A stretch of DNA of 64,000 nt from Candidatus Iainarchaeum sp. (GCA_030649735.1 JAUSFL010000044.1:1-64000); one strand, 5' to 3'. Positions 17,760 to 62,919 are shown, counted from the stretch's first letter. Notes: generated by a model not told the origin, from the sequence alone. Translations and numbers: made by a program.

Positions 17760-19033
17760 ATGAAAAATCCAGGAACGGCTGCCCTTTAGAGTGGAAATGA
17801 ATCGCGCTTCAAATTATTCTTTCGACCGGAATTCTGGGGTTTGGGAGTGTTTATTAATTTTAGAATGTACTTTTTTGTAATGGCTGAGTCTAGTTTGAGG
17901 GCTTATAAATTCAGATTGTATCCAAATAAATTGCAGATTTTGGGATTGCGTAAGCATCTATGGATATCTAAGAATCTGTGGAATAAATTGCTTGCTTTTT
18001 GTAAGGGCATTTATGCTAAAACTAAAAGGTTTCCGAAAAAGACTGAATTGCAGTTAATGGTGAAGGGTTTTGGTTTGTATTCTCAGACTCAGCAGTGTGT
18101 TTCTCATCGAGTGTTCGAGTCAATCAAGAGGATGTTTACTCTTAAGAAAAAGGGGGTTCATTGTGGTTTTCCAAGGTTTAAGAGTTTTCACAATATGAAG
18201 TCTTTGTATTATCCTCAGAGTGGTTTTAAGCTCGGGAAGAAGTTAAAGGTGACTCCTTTTGGTGAAATTGCAATCAGAAAGCATAGGAAAATTAAGGGAC
18301 GAATTAAGACTTTGAGTTTGAAACTGGAGCCTACTGGCAAGTGGTATGCTGTTTTTACTGTGGAAGTAGAATTAGAGCACAGGGTAAATTGCGGTGGTTT
18401 TGTGGGTGTTGATTTGGGTTTGAAGTCTTTTGCTTCTTTGTCTGATGGTCTGATAATTCAGAATCCGCATCATTTTAAAAAGTACGAAAGCAAACTTTCT
18501 TTTTTGCAGAGGAATTTATCACGATGCAAGAAAGATTCAAGAAACAGAAATAAAGCCAAGCATAAAGTTGCTTTATTGCATGAGAAAGTAGGTAATTCGC
18601 GCAGGGATTTTTTGCATAAGTTGAGTGCTTCTTTAGTTTCAAAATATTCTCTAATAGCATTGGAAAAGCTTAATCCAAAAGAAATGAGTGAACAACAATT
18701 AGGAAAAAGCATTCATGATGCTGGTTGGAGCATGTTCTCGAACATGTTGTGCTACAAGGCTGAAAGTGCTGGTAGCAGAATAGTGTTCGTGAATCCAAAA
18801 GACACAACTAAAGAATGCAGTGAATGCGGATCATTATCCAAGAAAAACTTGCAGGATAGAACACACAATTGCCCAATTTGCGGTTTTTCTCTGGATAGAG
18901 ATTTAAATGCTGCCAAAGTTATACTCAAAAGAGCTACCGCCGGACTTGCGGAATGTAACGCTTGCGGAGTCGGAACAAAAAGTTCCGTCAAGGAAGCAAG
19001 AAACCCAGTCAATTAAGACTGAGGGGATGTCAC
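17760..19033 (+). mobile_element. IS200/IS605-family non-autonomous (IS1341-like) element; left boundary approximate
   Basis: tnpB without tnpA; right-end hairpin CAGTC-AATTAA-GACTG followed by GATGTCAC; composition differs from flanks. Confidence 0.75.
17880..19016 (+). CDS. tnpB: TnpB RNA-guided endonuclease
   Basis: AYKFRLYP HTH; RuvC GVDLGL, ALEKL, DRDLNAA; Zn finger CSECG...CPICG. Confidence 0.93.
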   Translation: MAESSLRAYKFRLYPNKLQILGLRKHLWISKNLWNKLLAFCKGIYAKTKRFPKKTELQLMVKGFGLYSQTQQCVSHRVFESIKRMFTLKKKGVHCGFPRFKSFHNMKSLYYPQSGFKLGKKLKVTPFGEIAIRKHRKIKGRIKTLSLKLEPTGKWYAVFTVEVELEHRVNCGGFVGVDLGLKSFASLSDGLIIQNPHHFKKYESKLSFLQRNLSRCKKDSRNRNKAKHKVALLHEKVGNSRRDFLHKLSASLVSKYSLIALEKLNPKEMSEQQLGKSIHDAGWSMFSNMLCYKAESAGSRIVFVNPKDTTKECSECGSLSKKNLQDRTHNCPICGFSLDRDLNAAKVILKRATAGLAECNACGVGTKSSVKEARNPVN

Positions 19034-19078: not shown

Positions 19079-19792
19079 ATGAATTCAGTCTTGAATTTTT
19101 CCACAATTGAAAAAAAGGAAGTCTTGAAGTTTTTGGAGAACTTTCCAAGCTCTGGCGTGCGTTCAGAGTTTGAGGAATACCGTTGCAAGATTCTGGACTG
19201 TGCTGTAGTGCTTTACAAATCGGGAAAGCTTTTGATTCAAGGAAACTCTGCGGAAAAAGTGAAGGCGACAATTTTGCAAAAGGTTTCTTTCAAGGACGAA
19301 CTAGTGCTTGGAATTGATGAAGTCGGCAGGGGCGAAGGCTTTGGAGCTTTTGTTGTTGCAGGGGTTTTGGGAAAAACAAGCGCTTTGCGCGAGCTAAGGG
19401 ACAGCAAGAAAACCGCAAAGGAAAAAATTCCTGAAAAGGCAAGGCTTGTGAAAAAAAATGCGGAGTGGTTTTTTGTTGAAATTTCGGCGAGTGAAATTGA
19501 CTCTTTAAGAGAGTTAGGCACTACAATGAATCAAATCCAGGCAAACGCAGTGAACAAAATCATCAAGCATTTTGAAGCCGAAAAAGCAAAAGAAAAATTC
19601 CGGATTGTAGTTGACGGCTCGAAAATCAAAGGCATTGACAAGAAAGCAGAATTTTTGACAAAAGCCGACGACCTTGTAGTGCAATGCGCTGCTGCTTCAA
19701 TAATCGCAAAAGACGCAAGAAATAATAGCAAGGATTCTGGAAAAAGAAATACTTGGAAAAGCAAGGAAAATTCAGAGAAAACAAAAAATTAA
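19079..19792 (+). CDS. Ribonuclease HIII-like protein (TBP-like N-domain plus RNase H type 2 domain)
   Basis: VLYKSGKLLIQG N-domain; GIDEVGRG, LRDSKK, VVDG, ADD...AAASIIAK. Confidence 0.75.
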   Translation: MNSVLNFSTIEKKEVLKFLENFPSSGVRSEFEEYRCKILDCAVVLYKSGKLLIQGNSAEKVKATILQKVSFKDELVLGIDEVGRGEGFGAFVVAGVLGKTSALRELRDSKKTAKEKIPEKARLVKKNAEWFFVEISASEIDSLRELGTTMNQIQANAVNKIIKHFEAEKAKEKFRIVVDGSKIKGIDKKAEFLTKADDLVVQCAAASIIAKDARNNSKDSGKRNTWKSKENSEKTKN

Positions 19793-21944: not shown

Positions 21945-22703
21945 TTAATTCTTTCCAAAAAGCGCTTGGAAGTTTTTTTCAGCAGCCTTTTGGACATTTT
22001 CTGCCTGAATGCCTTTCAATTCTGCAATTTTTGAGGCAATTCTTGGAATCCAAACCGACGAGCATTGTTCTCCAGAGAATTCAAGCGGGCTGTCTGTCTC
22101 TAAAAGCAGTTTTTCCAAAGGCAATTCTTGCGCGAATTTTTGAATCCATTCACTGTTCAAAACTCCTGCACCCACAGAGACAAAAAAAGAAGTTTTTAGC
22201 AAGTCTTTCATTTGCTTTTCCTTGCAGACAAAAGAATGCAATAAAACTTTTTGCGCGTTTTCTTCCTGCAGAATGCGCAGCACTTCAGCCCTAGAGCCGC
22301 GCGCGTGCACGATCAATGGCTTTTTGAATTCTTTTGAGAGTAAAATGAATTTTTTGAAAATTGCGACTTGCAATTCTTTCTCTTCTTTTGAAGTTTGCTC
22401 GTCAAAATCAAGTCCGACTTCTCCAAAAGCAATTGCTTCGCTCGCGTGCTGTATGATGTGGTTCATTGTTTCCTCGCGCTTGCTTGCCGAGTCTTCGAAG
22501 ATGTGAGTTGGATGATAGCCTAAAGCCACTGAAATTATTTTGGGAAATTGCATTTTCAATGCAAGGCACTTGTGCAATCCTTCAAGAGTTGTGGAATTTG
22601 CGATTATGCGCTTGACTCCTGCTTTTTCAGCCGCAACAATGATTTCTGCAGGGTTTTCAAAATAGTCAAAATGACAATGAACGTCAGCCCACATTTTAGT
22701 CAC
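21945..22703 (-). CDS. tatD: TatD-family nuclease
   Basis: DVHCH, GYHP, GEVGLD, LIVHAR, LLETDSP. Confidence 0.93.
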   Translation of the reverse strand: MTKMWADVHCHFDYFENPAEIIVAAEKAGVKRIIANSTTLEGLHKCLALKMQFPKIISVALGYHPTHIFEDSASKREETMNHIIQHASEAIAFGEVGLDFDEQTSKEEKELQVAIFKKFILLSKEFKKPLIVHARGSRAEVLRILQEENAQKVLLHSFVCKEKQMKDLLKTSFFVSVGAGVLNSEWIQKFAQELPLEKLLLETDSPLEFSGEQCSSVWIPRIASKIAELKGIQAENVQKAAEKNFQALFGKN

Positions 22704-22757
22704 TTTTAGTATTCTGGGGGCATTTTTTTAAAAAGTGTAGTGCCTAACAATTATGTC

Positions 22758-22940
22758 ATGTCATTTGTAAGAAGCAAAAGCATCAAAGGCCACACTTACT
22801 ACTACTTGGTTTCAAACAAGCGCGTTAACGGCCGCGTTGTTCAAAAGTTCGAAAAGTATTATGGAAAAAACTCTCCAAGCCCAAGCACTAAAGTGGAAAC
22901 CGTTGATGCTTCAAAGCAAGAGCAAAGCCAGCAGCAATAA
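22758..22940 (+). CDS. Small basic beta-sheet protein, putative DNA-binding
   Basis: MSFVRSKSIKGHTYYYLVSNKRVNGRVVQKFEKYYGK resembles N-terminal modules of IS1634-type transposases; own TATA box. Confidence 0.65.
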   Translation: MSFVRSKSIKGHTYYYLVSNKRVNGRVVQKFEKYYGKNSPSPSTKVETVDASKQEQSQQQ

Positions 22941-22973: not shown

Positions 22974-24119
22974 ATGACAACTAATGTTTCAGTAGAATAC
23001 GGAAAAGCGCAGGAAAAGTACGAGGCAGCAAAAACAGACGCTGAAAGGCTTCAGGCGCTTTTGGAAATGAAGTCTGCAGCGCCAAACCACAAGGGCGCTG
23101 AAAACATGCGCGTGGAGCTTGGAAAAAAAATCTCAAAACTAAAAATGGAGATTGAAAAGCAAAAAACCCAAGAGTCAAAAAAAGGCTCTGGCCAAAGCTT
23201 AGCAGTAAAAAAAGACGGAATTGGGCAAATTGTCCTAATTGGCTTGCCAAATGCAGGAAAAAGCTGCGTGCTAAAAGCCCTAACTGGAGTTGACGTGCAA
23301 ATAGCCCCTTTTGAATTCACTACAACAATTCCGGAAAAAGGAATGGTGTTTTTTGAGCAAGTGCAAATTCAAATTGTGGAACTTCCAGCAATAATTGAGG
23401 GCAGTTCTGAAGGAAAAGCAAATGGAACTCAAATAATTTCAATAGTGAGAAATGCAGATGCGGTGTGCCTGGTGCTTAATGGAAATAATGCATTGCAAGA
23501 GTACAAGATTTTGGCTTCAGAATTGAGAAAATCAAATATTTTATTGAATGACAGAAAGCCAAGAATCAGGGTTGAAAGCTCAAAGTTTCCTGGAATTTCA
23601 ATGTCTGGGAAGCAGTTTTTGAAATGCAGGCAGGAAGAATTTGAAGGGTTCTTGAAAACAATGGGTTTTTCCAACGCTAGCGTAATGCTTGAAGAGCCGA
23701 CAGACTTGGCGCTTTTGGCAAAAGCCCTTGATGAAAAACTGGTTTACAAAAACGCAATAGCTTTTTTCATCAGGCAAAATCCAGAACAGCTTGAAGAATT
23801 GAAAAAAGAGTTTGGCGGAAAAATAATGGTTTTTCAAGATTACAAAAGTAAGGAAAAAATTGAAGAAGCAAAAAAAGAACTTTTTCAAATTTTGGGAAAA
23901 ATAAGGATTTTTACAAAAAAGCCTGGAAAAGAAGCTGATAAAGAACCGCTTGTTTTGCCGATTGGCTGCACTATCGAAGATGTTGCAAAAGACTTGCACA
24001 AAGACTTTGCAGCAAGCCTGAAGTATGCAAAGCTTTGGGGCTCAAGCAAGTTTGAAGGCCAAAGAGTCCCGAAAGACTACCAATTGCAAGACAAGGACAT
24101 TGTTGAAATCAGCGCTTGA
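22974..24119 (+). CDS. DRG/OBG-family GTPase with TGS domain
   Basis: GLPNAGKS, FTT, ELPAIIEG, C-terminal TGS (YAKLWGSSKFEGQRV). Confidence 0.92.
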   Translation: MTTNVSVEYGKAQEKYEAAKTDAERLQALLEMKSAAPNHKGAENMRVELGKKISKLKMEIEKQKTQESKKGSGQSLAVKKDGIGQIVLIGLPNAGKSCVLKALTGVDVQIAPFEFTTTIPEKGMVFFEQVQIQIVELPAIIEGSSEGKANGTQIISIVRNADAVCLVLNGNNALQEYKILASELRKSNILLNDRKPRIRVESSKFPGISMSGKQFLKCRQEEFEGFLKTMGFSNASVMLEEPTDLALLAKALDEKLVYKNAIAFFIRQNPEQLEELKKEFGGKIMVFQDYKSKEKIEEAKKELFQILGKIRIFTKKPGKEADKEPLVLPIGCTIEDVAKDLHKDFAASLKYAKLWGSSKFEGQRVPKDYQLQDKDIVEISA

Positions 24120-33350: not shown

Positions 33351-33455
33351 GATTAGCATTAAATGCATAATTTGTTTAAAAAAACAAGCGCAAAAAGCGC
33401 GTTTTTTCGCTTCCCTTCCCGGAAAAAGCACTCAAGCTGAACTGTTTTTATAAAG

Positions 33456-33469
33456 TTAGGTTGACCTAA
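33456..33469. promoter_or_regulatory. DtxR/MntR/SirR-type operator TTAGG-TTGA-CCTAA
   Basis: Palindrome between TATA box TTTATAAA and the ATG of the DtxR-family gene. Confidence 0.8.
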
Positions 33470-33475
33470 TATTTT

Positions 33476-34114
33476 ATGCCATCACGGAATGAGCAAGATT
33501 ATTTGAGATACATTTACGAACTTCAGTCAAAGAACAACCGGGGCGTCAAAGTTGGCGAGATTGCTAAAGAATTGGGAATTTCAAAGCCCAGCGTTTCTGA
33601 AATGCTTTCAAAATTCAAAAAGGCCGGCCTTGTTGAATTCAAGAATTACGGGCCAGTCTCATTGACAAAGCGGGGAATCAGGCAGGCAAGGATTGTCCTT
33701 AGAAAGCACAGAATTCTAGAGGTTTTCTTTGCAAGGCTTTTGGGATTGAAAAAGTCATTTCATGACGAAGCGCATGAGATAGAGCACGCAATTTCTGAAG
33801 TTGCAAGCGACAGGCTTGAAAAGCTTTTGAAAAACCCGAAAGAATGCCCTGACGGGAGGGAAATCCCGGCAAAGCAGGCAAAAGTAATGACATTAAATTC
33901 AGCGCCATTGAACAGGCAATTGCGCGTGCTTTTTTCAAGGATTGAAAGAAAGGAAGAGCAGAGCAGGATTAACGCGTTGGGCCTGGTCCATGGGGAAAAA
34001 ATCAGTGTGACAAAAAGAATTTCCAACGGCCCTTTGATAATCAAGGTTAAAAAAAGCGAGATTGTTCTTGGAAAGAACATTTCATCCCTGATTTTTGTCG
34101 AGGCAGACAAATGA
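33476..34114 (+). CDS. DtxR/MntR-family metal-dependent repressor with FeoA domain
   Basis: EQDYLRYIY, SKPSVSEML, RKHRILE, EAHEIEH, CPDG, C-terminal FeoA. Confidence 0.93.
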   Translation: MPSRNEQDYLRYIYELQSKNNRGVKVGEIAKELGISKPSVSEMLSKFKKAGLVEFKNYGPVSLTKRGIRQARIVLRKHRILEVFFARLLGLKKSFHDEAHEIEHAISEVASDRLEKLLKNPKECPDGREIPAKQAKVMTLNSAPLNRQLRVLFSRIERKEEQSRINALGLVHGEKISVTKRISNGPLIIKVKKSEIVLGKNISSLIFVEADK

Positions 34115-41395: not shown

Positions 41396-43285
41396 ATGCC
41401 GAAACTAAAATGCGGGATTGAAGTGCACCAGCAGCTTGATACTGGAAAATTGTTCTGCCGCTGCCCGAGCTTTTTGCGCGATGACAAGCCAGAATTCACT
41501 GTTGAAAGAAAGCTTCGTGCTGTTGCATCTGAAATGGGCGAATTTGACGCTGCAGCCTTGGAAGCAATGCAAAAGAATTATACGTTTGTTTATGAAGGAC
41601 ACCACGAAAACGCATGCCTAACGGACATTGACGAATCCCCGCCAATGCCAGTTGATAAAGAAGCCTTGAGAATAGTCCTAGAAGTTGCATTGCTTGCAAA
41701 ATCAACAGTGCTTGACAAGGTTTTTGTAATGCGAAAGGCAGTTGTTGACGGAAGCAACACTTCAGGCTTCCAAAGAACAGCGCTTGTCAGTACTGGCGGA
41801 AGCCTGAAAATCAATGAAAAAAAAAGCGTGGGCATTCAGACAATTGCGTTGGAAGAGGACGCTTGCAGGCCTTCAAAGAAAGACGAGGAAAACAAGAGAA
41901 TTTACTACCGTCTGGACAGGCTGGGAATTCCATTGATTGAGCTTGCGACAGCGCCAGACATTGAAACTCCAGAAGAGGCAAAAGAGACTGCATTGGCCAT
42001 TGGAAAATTATTGAGGATTACTTGCAAGGCAATGAGGGGCTTGGGGACAATAAGGCAGGACTTGAACATCAGCATTGAAGGCGGAGCAAGAATTGAAATC
42101 AAGGGCTGCCAGGATTTGGAAATGCTTGAAGAGCTTGTAAGGCGGGAAATGCAAAGGCAGGAAAAGCTTTTGGAATTGAAGAAAATTCTTTCTTCAAAAG
42201 CAAAGCCCGAAGATTTTGGAAAATTCGAGATTTTAGAGCTTTCGGAATTTTTCAAGAATTCTGAAAACAAGCTAGTGAAGGGAAAAAAGATTTTTGGGGC
42301 AAGAATTCCAAAAATGAAAGGACTGCTTGGAATTGAATTACAGCCCGGAAGACGGTTTGGAAGCGAATTGTCAGACCAAGTGAAGGCAAAGGCAGGCTTG
42401 AAGGGATTATTGCACAGCGACGAGCTGCCGAATTATGGAATTACTGAAGCAGAGAAGAGTCGCATTGCAGGCAAGCTTGATATTCCTCTTGACGATATAC
42501 TGCTCCCTTATGGCGACGCTTTCATTCTAGTGATTGCAGAAAAAGAAGCAGCGGAGAAAGCATTCAAAGCAATCAGCGCAAGGATTTTGCAGGCTTTCAA
42601 AGGAGTTCCTGAAGAAACCCGCAATGCTTTAGAGAACGGAAACACTGAATATTCGCGCCCTTTGCCCGGAGCTGCTAGAATGTATCCTGAAACCGACATT
42701 GCTTCTTTTGAAACTTCAGAAAAAGAACTCAGCGAGTTGGAGAAAGAGCTGCCTTTATGGCCGCAAGAACGCGTGAGGCTTTACACTGAAAAATTCGGGG
42801 TTTCAAGACAGCTTGCAGAAAAGATGTCATTGGACAATTACGCAATCTTTTTTGAAAGCCTTGCGAAAAAAGGCTTTGATGCAACGCAAGCCGCTGTTTT
42901 GCTTTTGGAGGGATTGACTCAGCTTTCAAGGGAAGGAATCAATGTTGAAAAATTTACGGAGCAACAGATTGAAGAATCATTGCAGCTTTTGAAAGATAAA
43001 AAACTGACCAAAGAGACAGTTCTTGAATTCTTGAAATTACGGAGCAAAAATCAGTTCAAACTTGCAGCGGAATTGCTAAAAGAGTTAGGCACTACAAGTG
43101 TTTCAGAAAAAGAAGTGCAAAAAACAATTGCCGCAATTGTTGCAAAAAGCTCTGCGCTCATTAAGGAAAAAGGCGACCGGGCAATTTCAGCATTGATGGG
43201 TGAGGCAATGAAAGAACTGAAAGGAAAAACTGACGGGGCAACAATCTCGCGAATTCTAAAAGAAGAAATTGCAAAGCTCAAATAA
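41396..43285 (+). CDS. gatE: Glu-tRNA(Gln) amidotransferase subunit E
   Basis: GIEVHQQL, DGSNTSGFQRT, LDRLGIPLIE, RPLPGAARMYPETD. Confidence 0.97.
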   Translation: MPKLKCGIEVHQQLDTGKLFCRCPSFLRDDKPEFTVERKLRAVASEMGEFDAAALEAMQKNYTFVYEGHHENACLTDIDESPPMPVDKEALRIVLEVALLAKSTVLDKVFVMRKAVVDGSNTSGFQRTALVSTGGSLKINEKKSVGIQTIALEEDACRPSKKDEENKRIYYRLDRLGIPLIELATAPDIETPEEAKETALAIGKLLRITCKAMRGLGTIRQDLNISIEGGARIEIKGCQDLEMLEELVRREMQRQEKLLELKKILSSKAKPEDFGKFEILELSEFFKNSENKLVKGKKIFGARIPKMKGLLGIELQPGRRFGSELSDQVKAKAGLKGLLHSDELPNYGITEAEKSRIAGKLDIPLDDILLPYGDAFILVIAEKEAAEKAFKAISARILQAFKGVPEETRNALENGNTEYSRPLPGAARMYPETDIASFETSEKELSELEKELPLWPQERVRLYTEKFGVSRQLAEKMSLDNYAIFFESLAKKGFDATQAAVLLLEGLTQLSREGINVEKFTEQQIEESLQLLKDKKLTKETVLEFLKLRSKNQFKLAAELLKELGTTSVSEKEVQKTIAAIVAKSSALIKEKGDRAISALMGEAMKELKGKTDGATISRILKEEIAKLK

Positions 43286-45157: not shown

Positions 45158-45255
45158 CAGTTATCAAATATTCAAAATTACGGAGCAAAAACTCTTTCAA
45201 ACTTGCAGCGGAAATTCTAAAAGAGTTAGGCACTACAATTGTTTCAGAAAAAAAG
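45158..45255 (+). repeat. Diverged copy of gatE segment 43017..43115 containing GTTAGGCACTACA
   Basis: About 15 mismatches over about 97 nt; reads KLRSKNSFKLAAEILKELGTT versus KLRSKNQFKLAAELLKELGTT. Confidence 0.9.
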
Positions 45256-45602: not shown

Positions 45603-45675
45603 TCCAAAACACCAATTATTTTCTTAAAGTATTTTGTTGCAATTAGTATTTAAGAATTTAAGTAAAAGTTAGGCA

Positions 45676-46863
45676 CTACAAATTTGAAATTTTAACTACT
45701 CCCCATTCAAGAATTTCTCGCGAATCATAATATAGTGGTTTCCTACCATAATAAATCCAACCAGTTATTTTGTAAATGTGGTTTTTTGGAAGCCGCAGTT
45801 TTTCAAGTATTCTATCTGCGCTCAATCCAGTACTTCGTAATTGAATAGTTTTTTCATAAGTTTCCCATTCTTTCTTTAATCCACTGGAGTTTTTTAGAAA
45901 TGTTTCAACTGCCTTAACAAATTTGGCTTGCTTTTTCTCCGCATATTTGAAAGGAATTTCCTGAAATAATTTGACAATATTTGGGCTTCGTCCATCAATA
46001 TAGAATGAGATTTTCTGTGAAAGAGTTCCATCCTTTCTTAATGTCCTATTTTTCTCTCCAGCAATTGGTGAAGAAGTAACTCCAAACTCAGCCAACAAGG
46101 ATTTTACTTGTTCATGAAATTTTATTAGCTCATTTACCTTTGACTCAACTTTATGCAATCCAAAAGTTGCAGAAGTAAATGCATTCTTTGCTCTAATAAA
46201 AGGGCATTGCAACTCGTTGCCAAAAAGAACACTCAGAAAAGCGCGTTTTATCTCCTTATCAGAATTCATTACCCAATCAGGAACTTTTGTTGAAGAAGAA
46301 ACTTTATCCCCAACAGGAGCGCCCGCCAAGAATAATAATCTTGCAAGCGGAGAACTATTAACATTTAAACGATAATCACCCCCTTTTGGATAAGTTCGAT
46401 ATAGTACCCTATTTTTTATTTTTCTTATTTCTGACTCCGAAGAATTAATTGCCAAATGCGGTTCGATTTTGTATTGCTTGAACAATAATGATGCAATCAA
46501 CTCCAAGTCTTCTTTCTCGCCAAAAAGGGAAAAGGCGCCCAAATGTTTCATTAAATGGCCATCACCAAATAGAAATGCAGATAGCTCTGTAAAAAGAAGA
46601 AAACTTTGAGTATCTTCTACTTTTAATGGAATCAATCTAATTGACTTAAGATAATTCAAGGCTCTAATTGGAAAAGGCACTCTTTTGTCAGATAACCAAC
46701 TGTATATTGTCCTTTCAGGATGCTTTATCAAGCGCGATATTTCAGAAATAGTCTTTATTGAATTTTGCAATTCTTTAGCTTGAATATACTTTTCTGCCAG
46801 GTTTAATTGCCGGTCTCCAAAAGAAGCAAGAAATTTATTCTCATCAACAATTATTTCTTCCAT
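45676..46863 (-). CDS. Free-standing LAGLIDADG endonuclease-like protein with HTH-like ends
   Basis: LSAFLFGDGHL and FLSVLFGNEL; GAPVGDK...VPDWV; no intein termini; AT-rich. Confidence 0.75.
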   Translation of the reverse strand: MEEIIVDENKFLASFGDRQLNLAEKYIQAKELQNSIKTISEISRLIKHPERTIYSWLSDKRVPFPIRALNYLKSIRLIPLKVEDTQSFLLFTELSAFLFGDGHLMKHLGAFSLFGEKEDLELIASLLFKQYKIEPHLAINSSESEIRKIKNRVLYRTYPKGGDYRLNVNSSPLARLLFLAGAPVGDKVSSSTKVPDWVMNSDKEIKRAFLSVLFGNELQCPFIRAKNAFTSATFGLHKVESKVNELIKFHEQVKSLLAEFGVTSSPIAGEKNRTLRKDGTLSQKISFYIDGRSPNIVKLFQEIPFKYAEKKQAKFVKAVETFLKNSSGLKKEWETYEKTIQLRSTGLSADRILEKLRLPKNHIYKITGWIYYGRKPLYYDSREILEWGVVKISNL

Positions 46864-48143: not shown

Positions 48144-49229
48144 TCATGAATTCCTGACATACTCCAACGACAAAATGCCGTTAAGTTTTGGGGTTTCTGG
48201 ATTCCTAATATTTTCCCCTTTAGGCGTATCAGTGCTACCCTTCAGCACATCTCTGTCTGTGCTGAATCGAGATATGCCTTGGCGATACAAACTTGCAATA
48301 TTGAATCCTGCGTTTGCATCGGCATTCTCAACCACCCCACATTTCGTGCAGTGGAATTCTTTTAGTTTTCTGTTCCTTGCTTCTATATGACCGCACTTAC
48401 TACACCTTTGCGAAGTATATTGCGGTTCAACATAGGCAACAGGCACTCCGAACTTTTTGGATTTGTATTCTATCATTTTTTGCAACTGATAAAAACTCCA
48501 AGAGTTTATGGAATACCTCTGCTTTCTTCTCATTTTTGTAGTCTTTCGAATATCTTTCAATTCTTCAAGTACTATAATTGCTTTGCTATTTTGTGCTTCA
48601 TCAATCAATTTCTTGCTTATCTGGTGATTAATATTCCTAATGATTCTGCTCTCTCTATCTTTGATTTTCTTAACAAGAGAATGCTTGCCATTCTTTTGAA
48701 GTGACCGTCTTATGTTTTTATATTTTGTGTGAATATGATTGCACTTCTTACCTAGCTTAAGCACTTTTCCAGTATCAATATTTGAAGCTACAAGGACATG
48801 CTTAATTGTATTTCTATCCACACCAATCACTTGCTTTGGTTTGTATTGACAAGGTTCTTCGTATGAATATGACACATAAGCAAAAGTCTCCCCAATTTCA
48901 ACTTGGTTTATCTTCTTAAATGAAATATTAAAGCGAATTGGAAGTGTTAATTTCAGACAAGGTATTATTATCTCTTTTTTTGTGAATCTAATTCCTTGAG
49001 AAGGAACAGTCAGTTTTACTGAATTTACAGTTTTGATTGTTTTATTTTTGGCATACTTTCGGAGGATTTGGTTGGCAATCACTGATTTCAAGCCAATATG
49101 TTTTACATCTTTGCTTGATAATGTTCTCTCTCTTATTGCATACTCAGCTATTTTCTTTGCCAAGCTAAGTTCTCTGCTAAAGTTCTGATAATGCTTTATT
49201 TTGAGAGTCAATATCAAAAAAGACCACAA
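48144..49229 (-). CDS. tnpB: TnpB RNA-guided endonuclease (second, distinct clade)
   Basis: RuvC GVDRN, VLEEL, NADANAG; Zn finger YTSQRCSKCG...CTKCG. Confidence 0.9.
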   Translation of the reverse strand: MWSFLILTLKIKHYQNFSRELSLAKKIAEYAIRERTLSSKDVKHIGLKSVIANQILRKYAKNKTIKTVNSVKLTVPSQGIRFTKKEIIIPCLKLTLPIRFNISFKKINQVEIGETFAYVSYSYEEPCQYKPKQVIGVDRNTIKHVLVASNIDTGKVLKLGKKCNHIHTKYKNIRRSLQKNGKHSLVKKIKDRESRIIRNINHQISKKLIDEAQNSKAIIVLEELKDIRKTTKMRRKQRYSINSWSFYQLQKMIEYKSKKFGVPVAYVEPQYTSQRCSKCGHIEARNRKLKEFHCTKCGVVENADANAGFNIASLYRQGISRFSTDRDVLKGSTDTPKGENIRNPETPKLNGILSLEYVRNS

Positions 49230-49338: not shown

Positions 49339-50136
49339 CTACCAGTTTACTCTTTTACTCATAAATTCATAAAACAAGTAAATTTGGGCAAAGCCTTTAT
49401 ACTCGTGCCATAATTCTTCTGCTTTTTGCAAGTACTGGTCGTTTTTTGCTTCTTTTCCTTGAAAGTAAACTTTGCTCATTGCGCGCTTCATCCAAACATC
49501 CAATGGAAATCCATTAGTGTCGCCAAAGCCATAAAGCAGAATGCATTCTGCAATTTTTTCTCCAATGCCTGGGCAGGAAAGCAGGAATTCTTTCAGTTCT
49601 GCAGAGTTCTTGAATTTCAAATCTCCCCTTTGCAAGACCTTCAGTGTAGTGCCTAACAAGTACTGGTCGCGAAAACCGCACTTTACTTTTCGAAAATCCT
49701 GCACTGTGCATTTTGCAAAGTCTTCAGGCATTGGAAATTCATGCAGGCCTTCCACTTTTGCCCCGTAAGCATTCATTAATTCCTGCACGTTCATTCTGAT
49801 TATTGGAATGCTCCTGTTCGAGCTTAGCAGGAAGCAGACTATTGTTTCCCACAAGTCGCTTTGCGTCAAGCGCAGGCCTTTGTAATCCTTGACTGCCTGC
49901 TTCATGAAAGAGTCTGTTGAAATTTTCGCAAAAACCATTTTGTAATTGTCATTGCTCCGTAAAGTGAACTCTGCAAACTTTGCATTATTGGTTTTCAGTT
50001 TTCCTTGCTCTTGCATTAACTCGACAATTTTTCCATTCCGGGCCCTTTTGAAAACTCCGCGGTCTTCCTGCCAGACAAACTGTGGAGTTTGCCCTGAAAG
50101 CATTGTCAAACCAAGATTCAATGACTTTGGCAGCAT
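49339..50136 (-). CDS. 8-oxoguanine DNA glycosylase (OGG1/HhH-GPD family)
   Basis: TMLSGQ.PQF.W, CPGIGEKIAECILLYG, FPLDVW, GFAQIYLF. Confidence 0.88.
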   Translation of the reverse strand: MLPKSLNLGLTMLSGQTPQFVWQEDRGVFKRARNGKIVELMQEQGKLKTNNAKFAEFTLRSNDNYKMVFAKISTDSFMKQAVKDYKGLRLTQSDLWETIVCFLLSSNRSIPIIRMNVQELMNAYGAKVEGLHEFPMPEDFAKCTVQDFRKVKCGFRDQYLLGTTLKVLQRGDLKFKNSAELKEFLLSCPGIGEKIAECILLYGFGDTNGFPLDVWMKRAMSKVYFQGKEAKNDQYLQKAEELWHEYKGFAQIYLFYEFMSKRVNW

Positions 50137-62070: not shown

Positions 62071-62344
62071 TGTAGTGCCTATGTCTCTATTTTTGCTTTT
62101 GTTTTCGGGACATTTACAAGACATTTTTTGGGTTTGCGGGACAATTAATTGGCAATTTTATAGTTGATTTTTTTGATTCGTATTTTTTTTGCCGACATTT
62201 TCCCGACATTTTTTCACTTTTCCCGACACCCATTTTGTAGTGCCTAATGCTGCTTTCAATTTTCCTATTTTCTGCTTAGTGCCATTTTTGTGCCATTTTT
62301 TTACTTTGCGTGTCATTCAAAGCTTGCATCTTCTGTAGTGCCTA
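62071..62344. repeat. Cluster of short direct repeats (three TGTAGTGCCTA; GACATTT, CCGACA and GTGCCATTTTT repeats)
   Basis: Read directly in a T-rich non-coding region. Confidence 0.8.
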
Positions 62345-62519
62345 TGCTCCGCTTTATTCACTTGCTTGCCAGTAACTGAGTTAACTCATGCTTAAATAAT
62401 TCAATGTAGAAGGTATGTCTAGAGAGTTTTCAAAACTGCTTTATAAAAGCAGAAGTAAGGACTTCTCATGAGAAACCCGACAACGACAATAAGAAGGCCG
62501 GAACAGAAATTAATGCAAG

Positions 62520-62708
62520 GTGAAGAAATTGGAACTACAGCAAACTCTTACAGTTAGGAAGAATGAGCAAATGACGGCAAAGCAAGTGGCCTTGTTGCTG
62601 GCGAGAAAGACAGATTTTGAGTTAAAGCGAGAGTTTCCGGTTTTTTGGGAATTGCTTGCAATAAAAAGCAAAAGTTGGAAAAGTGTTGATGATGAGTTTG
62701 AATATTGA
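62520..62708 (+). CDS. Small hypothetical protein
   Basis: 62-aa ORF overlapping the next ORF. Confidence 0.45.
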   Translation: MKKLELQQTLTVRKNEQMTAKQVALLLARKTDFELKREFPVFWELLAIKSKSWKSVDDEFEY

Positions 62709-62919
62709 GTTGAGAATACCAAAGCAAGTAGTGCCTAACTGTTTTCTCTGCCTCTCAAACAAAAGAAAACGCAAAAAAATGGTGTTCCGTACAACCCAAA
62801 GAAGATGGGTTTGCAAAGAATGCCTTGACGCGCTTGGAGAAAACCAAATACAACAAATGCTTGAAAAAATTCCTTTGGCTGAAGATATAATATTCAGAAA
62901 GCCAAGCATCAATTTTTAG
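62692..62919 (+). CDS. Small zinc-finger protein
   Basis: CFLC...WVCKEC. Confidence 0.55.
   Translation: MSLNIELRIPKQVVPNCFLCLSNKRKRKKMVFRTTQRRWVCKECLDALGENQIQQMLEKIPLAEDIIFRKPSINF

Follow-up and report, generated by a model that had tools for sequence, protein, structure and literature searches.

The small gene and its promoter region

A 64,000-nucleotide stretch of Candidatus Iainarchaeum DNA (GCA_030649735.1, JAUSFL010000044.1:1-64000; hereafter the window) allowed us to examine a short open reading frame (ORF) of 60 amino acids together with the 13-nt sequence directly upstream of it, TGTAGTGCCTAAC, which we call the word. Both lie between a divergently oriented TatD-family DNase gene and a DRG-like GTPase gene (Table 1). 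One base separates the word from the TATA-like box, of which TTTTTAAAAA forms positions 22725-22734, and nine nucleotides separate the end of the word from the ATG at 22758. The ORF call extends to an upstream GTG at 22740, the alignment of homologues begins at the ATG, and the stop codon is at 22938-22940. An earlier note on this DNA had described the order of TATA-like box, 13-mer and ATG of a 60-residue protein; the order stands, with the start of TTTTTAAAAA corrected by one base. The likeness that it saw to the DtxR-type site of the window also holds, since TATA, site and ATG follow each other there in the same order: tttttataaa, then the palindrome TTAGGTTGACCTAA, 6 more bases and an ATG. 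The genome of the window (G000) comprises 1.28 Mb in 51 contigs and is 92.7% complete, and the whole stretch is present in one sequencing run, from a groundwater metagenome, from which the assembly may derive.

Table 1. Genes, promoter elements and copies of the word in the window (positions counted from its first letter)
Feature	Position	Strand	Remarks
TnpB gene (Cas12f1-like_TNB)	18726-18923	+
Exact copy in RNase HII gene, read RELGTT	19513-19525	-	absent in 4/4 orthologues of other genera
TatD-family DNase gene	21945-22694	-	divergent neighbour; Pfam TatD_DNase, E 9.9e-54; ATG at 22694
TATA-like T7A5 box TTTTTTTAAAAA	22723-22734		common to the divergent TatD gene and the small gene
13-mer TGTAGTGCCTAAC, candidate binding site	22736-22748	+	between TATA box and start codon
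Small gene, codons 1-37, predicted three-strand beta module	22758-22868	+	AF2, alignment
Small gene, codons 38-60 and stop, variable tail predicted as disordered	22869-22940	+	AF2, alignment
DRG-like GTPase gene, MMR_HSR1 and TGS domains	22974-24119	+	downstream neighbour; domain scan
DtxR-type site	33445-33478
GatE 3' coding segment of 78 nt, including the motif	~43035-43112		duplicated at ~45176-45253, 91% identity
Exact copy in GatE C-terminal part, read KELGTT	43084-43096	-	absent in 4/4 orthologues compared
Exact copy in non-coding 78-nt duplicate of the GatE segment	45225-45237	-	downstream of panD; 91% identity
Exact copy 67 nt before panD, in panD direction	45668-45680	-	abuts stop codon of preceding ORF
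TnpB gene (Cas12f1-like_TNB)	48297-48494	-
Exact copy in OGG/HhH-GPD glycosylase gene, read LLGTT	49645-49657	+
Four near-copies (starts 62071, 62236, 62334, 62727), 1-2 mismatches	62071-62739	+	~1.2 kb without long ORF

Comparison with related sequences identifies the ORF as a real gene, because it has homologues, invariant alignment columns and an excess of synonymous change. Four homologues of 60-63 amino acids were found (identity 62-88%), 34 columns are invariant in the alignment of five orthologues, nearly all of them within residues 1-37, and in the first 37 codons synonymous differences (3-15) exceed nonsynonymous ones (1-8) in 10 of 10 pairwise comparisons. Synteny is also kept: in four metagenomic loci that hold the orthologous region (L003-L006) the divergent TatD gene start is present, and the GTPase gene follows the small gene in L004, L005, L006, G002 and G003. 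The protein is basic (pI 9.9; 11 K+R versus 4 D+E), with all five tyrosines within residues 1-37, followed by an acidic to polar tail (pI 4.7) that varies across orthologues.

The standalone beta-sheet module that the earlier note had proposed, with structure prediction as a check, is what AlphaFold2 (AF2) returned from a 46-sequence alignment. Residues 1-36 are confidently predicted to form a three-strand beta sheet, with strands at 2-9, 12-23 and 26-36 (mean predicted local distance difference test, pLDDT, 77.9; 35 residues at 90 or more; residues 50-60 below 50). The small ORF has no match in the versions of Pfam-A and NCBIfam scanned. Foldseek against the Protein Data Bank (PDB) assigned no fold to the module (best E 0.27), a wide structural comparison with VIA-align gave no nameable fold (best Z 3.1), and a sequence profile search of the PDB returned 0 matches. 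In the ESM Atlas the structural neighbours of the module include transposase clusters, and PF30413 (Pfam 38.1) is attached to one neighbour; this family is absent from the Pfam-A version scanned, and no mention of it was found in the literature searched. No published description of the module or the word was found in that literature, supplements not covered.

A module akin to the N-terminus of IS1634 transposases

A profile of the orthologues, searched against 1.84 billion protein representatives, matches 300 protein clusters at E up to 1e-3. Many of these are standalone proteins of 41-60 amino acids, and many others are longer and carry the module at their N-terminus. The module spans about 38 residues (residues 1-37 of the ORF) and follows the pattern K-G-x-x-Y-x-Y-L-V-x-x-x-R-x-x-G-K-x-x-Q-x-x-x-x-Y-L-G. 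The longer proteins account for 355 profile matches, from which subsets of 10 and 8 were scanned for Pfam and NCBIfam domains. The module stands N-terminal to DDE_Tnp_1/IS1634 (NF033559, E 5.5e-100 and 1.3e-95); its further partners are rve/IS240 integrase cores, Uma2 nucleases, C-5 and Dam DNA methylases, HTH_32 transposase-type domains, and ArdC_N, Fic, Zeta-toxin and ART domains. DNA-processing enzymes as partners are what a DNA-binding domain would be expected to show. Profile A2 matches the IS1634 equivalogs P0192 and P0202 at about 1e-11 over the whole module of 36-38 residues, so that the resemblance to transposase N-terminal domains suggested in the earlier note proves to be homology to the N-terminus of the IS1634 family.

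The small protein is not itself a transposase, because it has 60 amino acids and no DDE match. IS1634-family transposases share the whole N-terminal module of 36-38 residues with it but carry in addition a DDE domain (PF01609/NF033559), and their genes are bounded by terminal inverted repeats, of which there are none around the small gene. In reverse orientation, the closest match to the word between 22500 and 23300 has 5 mismatches in 13 positions, no better than chance, as 47% of random 800-nt windows contain a better one (4 mismatches or fewer). Annotated IS1634 transposases borne on plasmids open with the pattern of the module. Among three plasmid elements examined, two have inverted repeats of the type ...GTTTGACAGTA or GTTCGACAGCTA, and GCCTAA was not seen in them; as relatives of the word these repeats were discarded, agreement at about 8-9 of 11-12 positions by eye being within chance given the offsets. 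In passages from a paper on a C-terminal clamp-binding motif of IS1634 (PMC4549789), the transposase is treated for its C-terminus, and two of the paper's three uses of ‘N-terminal’ or ‘N-terminus’ are about biotin labels.

The class- and phylum-level comparisons used one set of 215 genomes, 98 of which contain the module at E up to 1e-5; a match at 1e-13 or better is present in 15, of which 14 have a standalone small gene. The one fusion of the module in G000 is a 330-residue Fic protein on contig C37. The module was also predicted, possibly from mis-called starts, at the N-terminus of GlyRS-like class II synthetases (551-590 residues) and B12-binding proteins (P0234, P0237, P0238, P0240, P0245, P0249, P0250 and P0254-P0256). 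A search of viral contigs with A3 found no relative. Metagenome-assembled genomes (MAGs) of a Desulfatiglandales bacterium (L001) and a Methanosarcinaceae archaeon (L002) hold nearly identical module-bearing gene starts at contig ends, with similarity reaching 100-200 nt before the ATG into the upstream leaders. These look like copies of one IS-like element common to two domains of life; contig-end fragments alone were found, and no complete copy. Near the ATG their left ends contain words with the core (T)GCCTAA or GNCCTAAT, which are suggestive only.

Linkage of the word to the small gene

The earlier note had taken homologues without an upstream motif to speak against its idea that the protein reads the word. 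Instead, the word was found upstream of the gene at 4 of the 5 metagenomic loci and upstream of 3 among 15 fused Fic-like genes; of the 13 other genomes in the class with a standalone gene, 7 have it there. At these four metagenomic loci the exact 13-mer begins 1-3 nt after the TTTTTAAAAA box, and the 26-nt block formed by this box, the 1-3 nt and the 13-mer is invariant in 5/5 aligned orthologous spacers, across which the flanks of the block and the synonymous sites have diverged. The 13 genomes were searched with T[AG]GTGCCTAA on the same strand in the 130 nt before the start. Coding-strand copies lie upstream in G145, G003 and G150, and twice each in G129, G002, G075 and G034; allowing one mismatch adds G114 and G007 (9/13). 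In G053 the word lies across the stop codon, and an upstream copy is absent in G136, G012 and G142. G003, a relative within the family, has another upstream neighbour, with TatD about 1.9 kb off, and still keeps the word beside the small gene. At the fused genes the word is at -19, -43 and -63. One of these genes, in G086, repeats the layout of TATA, word, 9 nt and ATG, and in G097 the sole genomic copy of the word lies 63 nt before a module gene.

In 5 of the 13 genomes (G142, G145, G150, G129 and G114) the small gene is housed in a cluster resembling a type IV secretion system (T4SS), between genes for a PrgI-family membrane protein and a VirB4/TraG-like ATPase. These genes come from three other families (L042-L047) and are preceded by conserved mini-ORFs, e.g. 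..YNGK(R/K)YFVDHRL..MRNV.NP.D. The T4SS-like cluster of G000, on contig C3, is without the small gene. Word and gene are therefore linked in at least three unrelated neighbourhoods, namely TatD/GTPase, the T4SS-like cluster and others. The three stop-free translations of the word, LGTT, VVPN and VRHY, occur 46, 20 and 4 times in 269 module proteins, often just after the module or in over-extended N-termini, and many of these proteins are interrelated. Letter permutations of LGTT and VVPN occur 0-7 times, and VRHY is equalled by its own permutation (HVRY, 4).

The word is also highly over-represented. Allowing up to 2 mismatches, it occurs 16 times in the window (6 of these exact), whereas shuffled sequences (n=100) contain 0.44 matches on average and never more than 3. 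In G000 the exact 13-mer has 23 copies, its 11-mer core GTAGTGCCTAA has 40, compared with about 0.6 expected from composition, and GTAGTGCCTAACT, which overlaps the 13-mer, is the commonest 13-mer of the genome (28 copies). A weight matrix built from 43 core copies describes a 16-nt word, TG-TAGTGCCTAA-C-T-c-T, with a weak preference upstream for T-rich and then A-rich sequence. Of these 43 copies, 25 (58%) lie outside long ORFs, defined as 90 amino acids or more, though only 6.9% of the genome does (p = 2e-18). Counts of the pattern TRGTGCCTAA over the 215 genomes, with the reversed pattern as a control, gave 43 copies of the TAG variant in G000 and 43 in G001 (of the same genus), 12 in G002 and 9 in G003. 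The TGG variant has 38 copies in G034 and 27 in G075, two members of another family, and G007 has 9 copies of both kinds (7 TAG, 2 TGG). Nearly all remaining genomes have 6 or fewer copies, and the backwards control reaches 17 in some.

The check suggested in the earlier note, that the upstream motif of each genome be compared with its enriched k-mers, was positive: the variant upstream of the gene matches the variant found genome-wide. For example, G034 and G075 use TGGTGCCTAA throughout the genome, and in each of them two CTGGTGCCTAA copies precede the small gene. Of the 8 genomes in which the word reaches 9 or more copies, 6 contain a standalone gene, versus 8 of the 207 others (Fisher p = 6e-7, which overstates the association because the 8 genomes represent about three lineages). 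Position 22 of the protein is arginine in about 90% of the family and tryptophan in both TGG-variant proteins (G034 and G075); this R22W change was the sole residue-to-base covariation that turned up and is only a lead. With 40 copies in the genome and 58% of them outside long ORFs, the upstream copy might be a functionless passenger of the general excess. This we consider very improbable, since its position and orientation are kept at 4/5 metagenomic and 7-9/13 genomic loci, including genomes with 1-6 copies, and the word is invariant where adjacent bases and synonymous sites have changed.

Because the word accompanies such genes across the class and is among the commonest words of the genome, the small protein is its likely reader. 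From the sequence data we favour, with somewhat better than even confidence, a protein that binds the word and represses its own gene. The module would recognize T(A/G)GTGCCTAA(C/A) as a sequence-specific binder of nucleic acid. Bound at its own gene, the protein would occupy the loading place of TFB and RNA polymerase and thereby repress its own transcription (negative autoregulation); repression is proposed because the word follows the TATA box immediately and ends 9 nt short of the ATG. The word has multiplied to about 30-45 copies per genome in this Iainarchaeia family, and independently in the family with the TGG variant. The protein probably occupies the other ~40 sites too; it would then be a transposase DNA-binding domain that was domesticated and whose family of sites expanded. 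The earlier note had proposed that it acts as a nucleoid protein or recombination cofactor.

Known regulators offer two precedents. Archaeal repressors usually act by blocking TFB/RNA polymerase loading, and those of the MDR1/DtxR, LrpA and Phr type bind between TATA box and start site. The order of TATA, site and ATG is the same at the small gene, where the candidate site just downstream of the gene's own TATA box is kept in 5/5 spacers. In contrast to these repressors, the word is asymmetric rather than palindromic, its site family enters ORFs, and the predicted reader is a 36-residue beta sheet instead of a winged helix. In systems of the IS1 InsA type, a transposase derivative consisting only of the binding domain represses from the element end. 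The small protein is likewise a short transposase N-terminus with a site overlapping its own promoter, but its gene lies outside any insertion sequence, is syntenic with host genes across genera, and is accompanied by ~40 sites across coding and non-coding DNA.

Alternatively, the word could act in RNA, in the 5' leader or intercistronic mRNA, with the protein binding its own message to control translation. The gap from word to ATG is 8-15 nt in G000, L004, G002, G003, G034, G075, G129, G145, G150 and G114, at T4SS-type loci the word lies within an operon beside a GAGG-like ribosome site, and a Tyr-rich beta-sheet surface is typical of single-strand binders. PC4- and Pur-alpha-type folds appeared among weak structural rows (Z up to 3.0), which is not evidence. 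Archaeal transcription starts about 25 nt downstream of the TATA centre. With a TATA box ending at 22734, the expected start would fall at or after the word, so the word is probably not transcribed here. Additionally, the gap is 27-30 nt in L003, L005 and L006, the partners of the module are mostly DNA enzymes, and a look for RNA runs containing the locus yielded none. Taken with these points, regulation through RNA appears distinctly unlikely.

Copies of the word across the genome

Copies of the word are found in several settings beyond the small gene (Table 1). Those in the GatE and RNase HII genes arose by substitution, because orthologues without the word have equal length there. The 18 copies of G000 inside long ORFs comprise 14 of the (E/K)LGTT type, 3 of the VVP(N/K) type and 1 ambiguous; none of the coding copies of this genome was seen as an in-frame repeat insertion, and those compared are substitutions. 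Among non-coding copies, some lie 10-110 nt before genes, often right behind a TATA-like run, and several supply or abut a stop codon. Similarity between pairs of copies seldom extends above 16-38 nt, and most copies share about 16-20 nt. Their distribution is uneven: a single 78-kb contig carries 13 of the 43 core copies, and several of 40-70 kb have none. An Orc1/Cdc6 gene lies at C49:103885, and the assembly in 51 contigs is too fragmented for proximity to an origin to be judged. Overall, these features suggest that either the word spreads by some process or many sites are selected for.

Compound arrangements are also seen. In G001 copies follow each other at 22 or 44 nt in arrays that also contain a second box, GCTCCGC, and G034 has pairs with a spacing of 47 nt and a CCCTCT box. 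Only G075 showed mosaics of GC-rich hairpins, which measure 67-306 nt, are flanked by direct copies CCTGGTGCCTAAC, contain units such as GCCGGAAAGATCCGGCGGTGATCTG and occur several times per genome (L048, L078-L082). A 90-nt unit (80% identity), in the order word, GCGGAGC box, word and T/A run, is common to C39:34016-34070 (L027) and C30:26615-26669 (L026) of G000; on C39, a small HicB-like ORF downstream of the TFB gene stops at the TAG inside the first copy. Two genomes without expansion of the word each have a pair of copies: inverted and 37 nt apart at the stop of a 384-residue ORF in G004 (L038, C4:27675-27734), and direct, 50 nt apart and with a GCTCC box in G025 (L039, C2:78362-78422). 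Rfam searches of 20 loci with arrays and elements returned two tRNAs only.

Several of these observations weigh against autoregulation by the small protein as a full account. Neither autoregulation nor a simple operator model explains the 18 of 43 G000 copies inside long ORFs, the several copies at gene ends between convergent genes, or the arrays, none of which the earlier note had anticipated. The word is asymmetric, unlike most archaeal operators, and the module resembles no known DNA-binding fold among those compared. Three of the 13 standalone and 12 of the 15 fused genes are without the word. At T4SS-type loci a small upstream ORF overlaps the word, which lies within the operon; because G142 keeps the peptide but not the DNA word, conservation at these loci may be due in part to coding constraint. 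R22W is a single evolutionary event, and G150 combines TGG with R22. G025, which is 91% complete and has the direct copy pair, is not among the genomes with a module match (E up to 1e-5). In G001 the small gene was not found beside 43 copies of the word, a case that is uninformative because this genome is 81% complete and its syntenic contig breaks off within the GTPase gene.

Some of these copies raise the question of whether another factor, such as a transcription factor, a XerA-like recombinase or a DtxR-type repressor, reads the word, with the small gene merely one of its targets. Many copies are distant from any module gene, the G025 pair occurs without a detected one, and the DtxR box of the window contains the pentamer of the word, CCTAA. 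A XerA-like tyrosine recombinase gene (G000 C49:3751-4725), which opens MGTIEELGTTIGELGTT, has two copies 21 nt apart in its first codons and a third abutting its stop codon. A gene for a 140-residue winged-helix-like protein (C49:2044-2466) has arrays of upstream copies in G000 and G001. This protein, the best alternative candidate, was rejected as the reader, because its gene belongs to the core set of the class (160 of 215 genomes have it) and occurs irrespective of expansion of the word. It is near-universal and single-copy, stands beside TFE in G000 and G001, and has no Pfam family above cut-off. We regard another reader as unlikely, because the word tracks module genes in three unrelated neighbourhoods and in genomes where it is otherwise at chance level, its only copy in G097 being the one before a module gene, because the genome-wide variant agrees with the variant at the small gene, and because DtxR-type sites are palindromic and the word is not.

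The arrays and mosaics suggest a different origin, in which short non-autonomous mobile repeats (MITE/REP/RPE-like) end in the word or use it as their target, and the small protein is a transposase remnant reduced to its binding domain. Such a remnant would control or assist movement of the elements, its own upstream copy being a former element end; this overlaps with autoregulation by the small protein, because the protein would still bind the word there. REP/BIME repeats go with RAYT (Y1) transposases; the palindromic elements of Rickettsia enter genes without shifting the reading frame. The mosaic repeats of G075 and in-frame additions to housekeeping proteins in G001 resemble both. Two such additions were found in G001. 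In Dph2, a 138-nt (46-residue) in-frame insertion directly follows an ELGTT copy shared with G000 (C27:11269); the insertion (L033, G001:C72, ~2050-2190) holds two further copies and a 9-bp inverted repeat, GCGGAGCAC/GTGCTCCGC. In an IleRS-like gene (L035, C56, 1000-1164), KELGTT is followed by a piece akin to the Dph2 insertion, ...KKLGTTFLAEQG..PLGTTMPFSQGSN, at which the contig ends; the G000 orthologue reads KELPTT there.

Mobile repeats are also suggested by the 22/44-nt arrays with their GCTCCGC box, by homology of the module to the IS1634 transposase N-terminus, and by the differing neighbourhoods of the small gene across families. In contrast, copies mostly alike over only ~16-20 nt leave no element body, coding copies arose by substitution and not insertion, the small gene has no inverted partner nearby, and its location beside the GTPase gene is stable across genera. 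The word is also not palindromic as in REP/BIME repeats, and most copies are bare 16-mers. No Y1 transposase (PF01797), and hence no RAYT gene, was found in G000, and none of its transposases carries the module. Resident transposases were rejected as a source of the word, as the two DDE_Tnp_1 genes of G000 have no copy in their flanks; the two TnpB genes of the window lie 300-600 nt from copies, in no consistent geometry. A mobile-repeat origin thus seems rather doubtful as an alternative to a domesticated, autoregulating reader.

A further reading is a genome-wide ‘self-tag’, in which the domesticated module would read a 16-nt tag actively spread by substitution, in arrays and at gene ends. 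The tag would serve either DNA transfer or uptake through T4SS/Ced-like machinery, the gene cluster of which houses the protein in sister lineages, or chromosome organization. We consider the self-tag, including these roles, a slim possibility. It would have counterparts in the DUS/USS uptake sequences of Neisseria and Pasteurellaceae, which occur about once per kb. Like these, the word is 12-16 nt long, is about 60-fold over-represented and enters genes by substitution in tolerant frames, and the small gene is found in the T4SS-like cluster of 5/13 other genomes; unlike these, it occurs about once per 32 kb, clustered and in arrays. The sites of parS/ParB, matS/MatP, Noc and SlmA are similar in being tens of well-conserved 13-16-nt sites per genome, many of them in genes, but they are palindromic and read by helix-turn-helix or ribbon proteins.

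These comparisons give a widespread, uncharacterized module a concrete candidate for the word that it recognizes. They also reveal, in uncultured DPANN archaea, a lineage-specific family of a 16-nt word that is expanding and enters coding sequence without breaking the frame; to our knowledge, such invasion has so far been described mainly for Rickettsia repeats and the uptake sequences of bacteria. Should the protein indeed read the word, a transposase DNA-binding domain would here have been recruited as a host factor along with its family of sites, a clean example from nature. A self-tag, if true, would be the first archaeal system comparable to uptake sequences or to parS/matS-type sites, read by a previously uncharacterized beta-sheet fold.

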